Assembly: GCF_051903065.1 (NCBI RefSeq)
Contig: NZ_CP178438.1
Length of the DNA: 64,000 bases
Origin: Escherichia coli
GTDB taxonomy: Bacteria; Pseudomonadota; Gammaproteobacteria; Enterobacterales; Enterobacteriaceae
Strand: one strand, 5' to 3'
The position numbers were made by a program. Below are positions 61,801 through 64,000 of the stretch, one piece after another. The stretch's first letter is position 1; each line of letters starts with the position of its first letter.

Positions 61801-64000
61801 TATACCGCCATTAAGCTGTATCTGGCGCGGATGCCAAAAGAGGAACTGGCAGAAGAAGAGTCGCGCCGCTGGGCGGAGATCATCGAAATGTCGCTCAACC
61901 TTGAACAGGCCTCCGATATCGTCGAGCGCATGGGTAGTGAAATTGCCGACAAATCGCTGGCTGCAAGGCGAGCATTTTCGCTTGATGGCTTGAAGGAACT
62001 GGATGCGCTCTATGAGCAATTGCTCAGTAATTTAAAACTGGCAATGTCGGTATTCTTCTCTGGCGATGTTACCAGCGCCCGTCGTTTGCGCCGCAGCAAA
62101 CATCGTTTTCGCATTCTTAATCGCCGCTATTCCCACGCCCACGTCGATCGCCTGCATCAGCAAAACGTGCAGAGCATTGAAACCAGTTCGCTACATTTAG
62201 GCTTACTGGGAGATATGCAGCGTCTGAACTCGCTGTTTTGTTCGGTGGCTTACAGTGTGCTGGAACAGCCGGATGAAGATGAAGGACGGGACGAGTATTA
62301 ATACCGTGACCCTGTAGGCCTGATAAGACGCGTAAAGCGTCGCATCAGGCACTATGAACAAGATGCCGGATCATGCATCCGGCAATTCACTTAAAAACGG
62401 TGACCCGCTTCCAGCGGAACCGCTTTTTCACCGGCCTTAAACACATAGGTGGTGTTCGGGCCACCCAGCGTTGCGTGACCTTTACTCACTGTGATCCAGT
62501 TACCTTCCGGTAGACCAATAATTGTGAGTTCTGGCGCGACGACCAGCAGTTCGCGAATACGCTGTTCACGGGTTTCACCTTTATGGCCTTCCGGCAGCGC
62601 GTTGGTGAAGTGCGGGTTGATTTGCAACGGGAACAGATTCAGCGCATCGAAACCTTGTGGATCGACAATCGGCATATCGTTGGTGGTACGAATGGTTGGG
62701 CAAGCAAGGTTAGCGCCAGCGCTCCAGCCAATATACAGCGCGCCACGTTTAACCACGTCAGTAATTGGTGCCAGCAGCCCGCGCTCGCGGCACTGTTTCA
62801 GCAACTGGAAAGTATTACCGCCGCCGACAATCACGATCTCAGCATTTTCAATCGCGGCAACGGGATCGACAACGCTATGAATACCGGTGACAGAAACACC
62901 CAGCGGAGCAAGAACCGCAGCCGTTTTCGCTGTGTAATCATCCCAGGTCTGCGTTACGCCAGCGAAAGGGATAAACACCGCTGAGCGGCGACCCTGCAAC
63001 TGTTCAGCAATTAGCGGCAGTGCATGTTCCAGCCAGGCTTTACCCGGCAGCGTCGAGTTACTCAATAAAAGCAGTTCCATTACTTCTCCGGTTAGTAAGA
63101 AATCACGGAAGGAATGCTACCACTGCGAATTTAACCACTTACTGACATGGCTCACGATGTCACGTATTGCACCGGGCGCTGAGACTGATGACAAACACAG
63201 CATTGCCTGATGCGCTACGCTTACCAGACCTACCAGATAACTGCAATATATTGAATTTTCGAGATTATGTAGGCCGAATAAGGCTTTATTCCGCATCCGG
63301 CATAAACAATGTGTACTTTGCCACCAATTTGAGCGCCCCTTAAGGCGCTGATATTTTTTTATCCTTCTCGTGCACATTGGGCCGCTTCAGCAATCAGCCG
63401 CACATCAGGTCGCGAAGTTGCCGCGGCGACCAGCCAGCGACATGCAGAGTTGAGTAACGCGATTAATCATGGGAAATTGCCTCTGCATGGGCGAGCAGGT
63501 ATTGCTCCGCCTCACCGGACCAGATCCCCTGATGACGCGCCAGAATCGCCGCCAGTGCTTGATCCTGAATCTGCGTGAGTGACGTCAGCGACAGGTATTT
63601 CCCGGTATACACCAGCTTTTTGCCGCCGCCGACGGCAGGCAATTCAAGCGTGGTTTCGCCCGCGGCATTCAGCCCAAGAATATGTGTTACCACTTTTGCG
63701 GCCTGCACTTTTTTCTCTTCGATCAGTTTGACCGCCGCGCGCATGTCGTCGGTATTGCCGCCTGACGTGCCCACGTAGTGGGTAAATGCATAATGCACAT
63801 CGTAGAAATTAATTGGCGCGCTGAAATGTTTATCCTGCGGTCCGGCGAAGAAATTCAGGCAACCATCTGTCGCCAGCAAGGAAGAGGCGAGAGTCACCAG
63901 TCCTTCATTAGGCACAAAGACGAAAATATCATCGAAGCCGTGACCGCCACTCAGCGCCATTAGCGTATCAAATGCTGCATCGGTGGCATTGAGATAATGA

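Follow-up and report, generated by a model that had tools for sequence, protein, structure and literature searches.

Assignment of a truncated dehydrogenase gene beside pepE in Escherichia coli to sorE of the L-sorbose operon, with a relic of sdhL in the adjoining spacer

The pepE-sorE junction at the right edge of the window

The window analyzed here is a 64,000-nucleotide stretch of Escherichia coli contig NZ_CP178438.1, and the subject of this report is its right edge, where pepE is followed by a 382-bp spacer (63081-63462) and then by a minus-strand reading frame that ends in a stop codon at 63463-63465 and is open over all 178 codons between there and the window edge. This open reading frame (ORF) is almost certainly the 3′ portion of sorE. 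That gene closes the minus-strand L-sorbose operon sorC-sorD-sorF-sorB-sorA-sorM-sorE, located between rluF and pepE. The presence of sorE at the pepE-rluF site of E. coli is already known, and the identification is correct but ordinary; the E. coli sor genes were reported in 1992 to map close to metH and iclR (Wehmeier, Nobelmann & Lengeler, J Bacteriol 174:7784). With E. coli sor known since that year, the significance is small beyond correct annotation, in which the right edge should be described as entering a common variable metabolic locus and not an unknown island.

The query for the window-type junction was the last 920 bases of the window (63081-64000). Homology to K-12 stops ∼80-90 bp upstream of pepE, the alignment to MG1655 ending at window position 63161 by megablast and at ∼63170 by blastn, and rluF was not found in the remaining 830 bases. 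An earlier sequence-only reading of the window had described both this departure from the K-12 layout and a minus-strand ORF still open at the window end, and both descriptions held; its suggestion that the L-sorbose PTS (sor) locus starts here, with an MDR-type sorE product, is supported as well. Three complete E. coli genomes matched the same 920 bases at 100% identity and annotate the ORF as “sorE: L-sorbose 1-phosphate reductase,” and the visible 178 codons were identical to WP_047625243.1. Features of the right edge are collected in Table 1.

Table 1. Features at the right edge of the window, in window coordinates.
Feature	Position	Strand	Basis or remark
pepE (dipeptidase E), conserved left neighbor of the locus	62391..63080	-	229-aa ORF; annotated pepE at the matching position in NZ_CP083585, NZ_AP045789, and K-12
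pepE upstream region common to K-12	63081..63170	.	K-12-type genomes match query bases 1-81 or 1-90 only
163-bp segment where the sdhL-intact layout (E. coli E50, L004) has 8 bp; carries the REP pair (BIME)	63179..63341	.	Gap between two BLAST segments against L004
REP unit	63205-63233	+	Head GCC[GT]GATGCG, tail CCTAC (regular expression)
REP unit	63269-63301	-	Head GCC[GT]GATGCG, tail CCTAC (regular expression)
Hairpin AGCGCC-CCTTAA-GGCGCT, then GATATTTTTTT	63332..63359 (stem-loop 63332-63349)	+	Left arm from the inserted segment, right arm from bases past the sdhL stop
3′ relic of sdhL: last 16 codons (PDVRLIAEAAQCAREG) and stop TAA 63359-63361	63359..63412	-	86% nucleotide identity to L004 3107-3176; alignment and translation
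5′ relic of sdhL: ATG 63468-63470, overlapping the sorE end; first ∼19 codons MINRVTQLCMSLAGRRGNF	63413..63470	-	The 5′ ends of sdhL in Klebsiella and Citrobacter align here too
sorE stop codon (63463-63465) and 84 residues past the Pfam cofactor domain (SorE residues 326-409), including the family-specific C-terminal extension of ∼45 aa	63463..63717	-	
sorE, C-terminal two-thirds of the ADH_zinc_N (Rossmann, NAD(P)-binding) domain; gene runs past the window edge	63718..64000	-	100% identical to sorE of NZ_CP083585 and NZ_AP045789

aa, amino acids; REP, repetitive extragenic palindromic; BIME, bacterial interspersed mosaic element.

Domain architecture and identity of SorE

The 178-residue fragment by itself matched the Pfam family ADH_zinc_N (PF00107) over residues 1-94 (E = 7.9e-6; model positions 37-128 of 129), leaving 84 residues after the domain, in agreement with the earlier description of a C-terminus of the medium-chain dehydrogenase/reductase (MDR) type with an extended tail. 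In the full-length protein of NZ_CP083585 (409 residues), identical over the visible part, ADH_N (PF08240) was found at residues 26-124 (E = 1.8e-6) and ADH_zinc_N at residues 187-325, the two domains that the sequence-only reading had named as a check on the full ORF. The protein also has a GTGPMG glycine motif of the GxGxxG dinucleotide-binding type, and its Cys39 and His68-Glu69 match up with two motifs of sheep sorbitol dehydrogenase (3qe3), CGSD and GHE, which we take to be zinc-ligand motifs. The ADH_N plus ADH_zinc_N architecture is shared with the polyol-dehydrogenase branch of the family, specifically sheep (3qe3) and human (1pl6) sorbitol dehydrogenases and a whitefly ketose reductase (1e3j). 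SorE differs from the sorbitol dehydrogenases, however, in that its substrate is a phosphorylated ketose and in its C-terminal extension: SorE residue 341 corresponds to position 318 of the Tdh profile, which has 340 positions, so the C-terminus is ∼45 residues longer than in a standard MDR. The extension is kept in the Citrobacter and Klebsiella orthologs; compared with the PDB at an E-value limit of 10, the SorE tail matched only a designed TIM-barrel, which is meaningless.

Several observations weigh against the assignment to sorE. Only 178 of the 409 sorE codons (44%) and none of the other six operon genes lie inside the window, the rest having been read from near-identical genomes, and no canonical terminator was found on the sorE strand downstream of the gene. 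Furthermore, a search of NCBIfam with the 178-residue fragment matched no family, and with full-length SorE it returned only the IolM and Tdh models, far under their cut-offs; because no NCBIfam model was matched above its curated cut-off, the name SorE is based on orthology to its Klebsiella and CFT073 counterparts and not on a dedicated profile. These profile results, with the fragment matching nothing more specific than the generic ADH_zinc_N, would also be expected if the ORF were another Zn-dependent MDR paralog (Tdh-, GatD-, IdnD-, or sorbitol dehydrogenase-like) acting outside the sorbose pathway. Such a paralog is nevertheless highly improbable: apart from the complete nucleotide identity to annotated sorE, 174 of the 178 residues are identical to c4981 of CFT073, a gene of an experimentally verified operon, and identity to the Klebsiella and Citrobacter sor-operon orthologs is 86-92%, whereas similarity to the solved sorbitol/xylitol dehydrogenases is low and distant (E = 1e-9 to 1e-5) and confined to the N-terminal half. 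In the genomes read, the gene moreover always lies directly downstream of the genes for the sorbose enzyme II (EII-Sor), and deletion of sorE from a strain of sequence type (ST) 131 abolished sorbose-dependent growth and the associated competitive advantage (PMC12817954, 2025), an effect that contradicts a role outside the pathway.

The sor operon in near-identical genomes and its predicted pathway

Two complete genomes carry the comparison past the window edge. NZ_CP083585 is 99.97% identical to the window over the final 9.2 kb and NZ_AP045789 is 99.98% identical over the final 12.9 kb (megablast), and in both the order is pepE, sorE (409 aa), genes for phosphotransferase system (PTS) components IID, IIC, IIB, and IIA, a short-chain dehydrogenase/reductase (SDR) gene, and a sugar-binding SorC-type regulator, all on the minus strand, followed by rluF-yjbD-lysC-pgi as in K-12. 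The PTS components matched NCBIfam models of the mannose/fructose/sorbose family above their curated cut-offs (IID, TIGR00828; IIC, TIGR00822; IIB, TIGR00854; IIA, TIGR00824), as did the SDR gene with sorbitol-6-phosphate dehydrogenase (NF004817). The adjacent mannose-family PTS genes and SorC-type regulator anticipated by the sequence-only reading are therefore present in these genomes, and neither a lack of an MDR/Zn-ADH domain nor collinearity with K-12 was found. In every related genome read, sorE lies directly downstream of mannose-family PTS genes and is accompanied by sorD and sorC; here those genes fall past the window edge, where we infer that the source genome continues with sorMABFDC-rluF.

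The operon is probably functional in this strain, and the strain probably sorbose-positive, to judge from its relatives. A defect beyond the edge (an insertion sequence (IS), deletion, or frameshift), which would make sorE the end of a pseudo-operon, is very unlikely. The sequence past base 64000 does lie outside the window, and IS activity in the region is real, since an IS1 element interrupts espL4/arpA in the window and is absent from the near-identical NZ_CP083585; but the two closest genomes, NZ_CP083585 and NZ_AP045789, which match the window completely over its last 920 bases, each carry seven intact sor genes, and the visible codons are free of stops and identical to WP_047625243.1.

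The pathway is established (PMC2831201 and PMC12817954, citing Sprenger & Lengeler, 1984, and Wöhrl et al., 1990). In it, the mannose-family EII-Sor (SorF/B/A/M) imports and phosphorylates L-sorbose to give L-sorbose-1-phosphate, which the Zn-type MDR enzyme SorE converts by reduction to D-glucitol-6-phosphate; the SDR enzyme SorD then oxidizes this to fructose-6-phosphate. SorC acts as activator of the operon with sorbose and as its repressor without it. NAD(P)H-dependent reduction of L-sorbose-1-phosphate to D-glucitol-6-phosphate is the predicted activity of the SorE encoded here, a prediction supported genetically by the ST131 sorE deletion (PMC12817954).

A close E. coli counterpart is the operon of CFT073 (c4981-c4987, sorE-sorM-sorA-sorB-sorF-sorD-sorC), which conferred growth on L-sorbose when cloned into DH5-alpha (PMC2831201); the published forward cloning primer maps to window positions 63433-63462 with two mismatches. 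As in the window, the CFT073 operon sits between pepE and rluF, with a spacer containing an sdhL relic and a REP pair. Nucleotide identity between CFT073 and window positions 63081-64000 is 96.96% (∼3% divergence), and the whole 6.4-kb pepE-to-rluF segment of CFT073 is collinear with that of the window’s twin genome at 96.7%. The Klebsiella pneumoniae operon sorCDFBAME likewise resembles that of E. coli in its seven genes, their order, the pathway, and the position between rluF and pepE, and SorE from Klebsiella assemblies is 86% identical to the E. coli protein, the C-terminal extension included.

A relic of sdhL in the pepE-sorE spacer

The spacer had been described earlier as containing REP units and a hairpin with a T-tract; both are present, but a relic of an eighth operon gene, sdhL (shikimate dehydrogenase-like), had been overlooked, and the 382 bp should be annotated as carrying a pseudogene relic and not repeats alone. 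In the relic, the 5′ and 3′ ends of sdhL are joined by an internal deletion of ∼701 bp. Window positions 63413-64000 align to sorE and the first 58 bases of sdhL in L004 (E. coli E50), and positions 63342-63412 align to the last 54 bases of L004 sdhL and 16-17 bases past its stop. Intact SdhL starts MINRDTQLCMSLAGCPGNF... and ends ...PDAQLIAEAAQFAREG-stop; against an intact ORF of ∼270 aa with a Shikimate_dh_N domain, the window retains only the first 58 nt and the last 54 nt. The junction at ∼63410-63413 is out of frame, leaving a relic ORF of 21 codons that ends in a TGA at 63405-63407. The relic ATG overlaps the sorE stop (CATGATTAA), and this ORF (63405-63470, minus strand; MINRVTQLCMSLAGRRGNFAT) could be translationally coupled to sorE; its translation may be entertained as a weaker possibility, although most likely it is meaningless.

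The Klebsiella and Citrobacter loci have an intact sdhL as an eighth gene after sorE, overlapping it by 8 nt, whereas the window keeps the two ends only. Within E. coli, sdhL-containing lineages including ST648 (PMC12817954) have the same operon at the same site, with sdhL overlapping the sorE stop exactly where the relic ATG sits in the window. As the eighth, overlapping sor gene, sdhL occupies positions 3123-3935 of L004, 9001-9810 of L005, and 9001-9813 of L007. Citrobacter, Kluyvera, Phytobacter, and Klebsiella have SdhL homologs at 80-90% identity, and more distant ones (65-70%) were found in Pasteurellaceae (Glaesserella) and Lautropia. In ST648, sdhL was reported to be sorbose-induced, and among the lineages studied it was reported in ST648 only and as “absent” elsewhere (PMC12817954). 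Because it was called simply absent outside ST648, the relic may not have been reported before; it may be the sole new detail here, together with its implication for the history of the site.

The two REP units stand in opposite orientation, each with head and tail around an imperfect palindrome, as is characteristic of a BIME, in keeping with the REP units noted earlier in the 382-bp region. Both are degenerate: a strict 34-nt REP consensus with ≤3 mismatches missed them, and the looser head/tail pattern found both. A search of positions 62200-64000 against Rfam at a permissive E-value gave no match in the pepE-sorE spacer, naRNA4 included. Its one match was in the yjbB-pepE spacer on the other side of pepE, where a REP-derived sequence at 62317-62384 (minus strand) resembled naRNA4 (RF02564; E = 1.3e-6) at 46.4 bits, below the gathering score of 59.5 bits; that spacer contains a canonical REP (62314-62350, minus strand) and a terminator-like hairpin (62384-62364, minus strand).

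The hairpin in the pepE-sorE spacer has a 6-bp GC-rich stem (−12.3 kcal/mol, z = −3.7, RNA fold) and lies exactly at the junction of the inserted REP segment with the sequence past the sdhL stop, which supplies the right arm and the T-run; L004, in which the left arm is missing, has no such hairpin. The earlier placement of a hairpin and T-tract at ∼63331-63360 was accurate as to the structure, but the structure is not a canonical sorE terminator. The T-run follows the hairpin on the plus strand only, antisense to sorE and pepE, while the minus strand reads CAAAUUGG after the stem; an intrinsic (Rho-independent) terminator of sorE or sor was rejected because the T-run is on the wrong strand. 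As a weaker possibility, the junction hairpin may now shape the 3′ end of sor mRNA. A scan of positions 62300-64000 for promoters found no sigma-70-like site.

Three layouts of the site and the origin of the polymorphism

To describe variation at the site, 5,426 complete E. coli genomes were compared, the window-type pepE-sorE junction being scored where at least 80% of the 920-base query matched in one piece. Three layouts together accounted for 5,423 of these genomes: the window-type junction in 2,689, a K-12-type pepE-rluF junction (empty site) in 2,557, and, in 177, an intact gene for a 271-aa “shikimate 5-dehydrogenase” (sdhL) between pepE and sorE, its start overlapping the sorE stop. 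The window-type allele thus represents 2,689 of 2,866 sor-positive complete genomes. The sdhL-intact genomes have no REP pair, whereas the window has lost ∼701 bp of sdhL and has the 163-bp REP-bearing segment. By phylogroup, the operon was found in >86% of the genomes of each group except A (9.6%) and B1 (12.1%), and recent work has treated it as a marker of fitness that is enriched in high-risk lineages (PMC12817954).

Outside E. coli, K. oxytoca, Citrobacter, and one K. pneumoniae assembly share the arrangement rluF, sorC sorD sorF sorB sorA sorM sorE sdhL, then pepE, yjbB, metH, and iclR; the K. pneumoniae assembly is fragmented, and pepE is missing from its gene calls. Since sorCDFBAME-sdhL also occupies this site in Klebsiella and Citrobacter, the eight-gene locus is probably ancestral here, and the empty site of K-12 probably reflects secondary loss. 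The earlier expectation of accessory content at this edge therefore stands in so far as the locus varies among strains, but its origin is probably ancestral, with loss in K-12-like lineages, and not an insertion. There is a good case that the spacer is a molecular fossil: the operon would have had eight genes ancestrally, nearly all sor-positive E. coli would descend from, or have recombined with, one allele formed by a single ∼701-bp sdhL deletion and the insertion of a REP pair, and the K-12 site would have arisen by a further, larger deletion. The sdhL relic and the synteny across genera together offer a simple marker of evolutionary direction at this site, favoring loss over gain. On the other hand, the direction was taken from three outgroup genera only, which counts against a firm polarity.

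The opposite polarity, in which the K-12 layout is ancestral and some E. coli lineages gained sor horizontally as an accessory island between pepE and rluF, is unlikely. The near 50:50 presence and absence among complete genomes and the strong phylogroup structure of its prevalence (PMC12817954) would suit such an island, as would the ∼80-95 bases of filler, with no detectable similarity to the 6.3-kb sor segment, that lie between pepE and rluF in K-12. By contrast, no integrase, transposase, or tRNA was found between pepE and rluF and no direct repeats were found at the borders; the G+C content of the sor segment (51.1%) matches that of its flanks (51.0-52.5%); and the same genes occur in the same order at the same site, from rluF to pepE-yjbB-metH-iclR, in the outgroups named above. 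On these grounds (no mobility features, native G+C, and synteny in other genera), the reading as a mobile island was rejected. K-12 also keeps 39 pepE-proximal bases in common with the sdhL-intact layout, the match stopping 27 bp short of the sdhL stop and giving way to ∼80 bases of filler; such a remnant is what a deletion would leave and agrees with secondary loss of an ancestral locus. Compared with the 6.3-kb sor segment and with the Klebsiella and Citrobacter loci, the K-12 filler itself (L003 8225-8319) gave chance-level 8-10-mers only, besides the shared flanking bases at the query ends.

Other variable sites near the locus

Elsewhere in the window, positions 54003-54770 form a 768-bp insertion relative to NZ_CP083585, with 9 bases (L001 3691-3699) duplicated at its ends. 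In NZ_AP045789 the espL4 gene (arpA in K-12) is split at this place by an annotated IS1A-family element, across which the window and NZ_AP045789 are collinear; espL4/arpA of the window is thus interrupted by IS1. CFT073 differs here in being without arpA/espL4 between aceK and iclR. Finally, two small hypothetical genes lie between metH and yjbB in CFT073 (L010 36325-37137), at least the second of which is present in E. coli E50 (L004 1-419), at the edge of that stretch; they are absent from K-12, NZ_CP083585, and NZ_AP045789, marking another small variable spot nearby.

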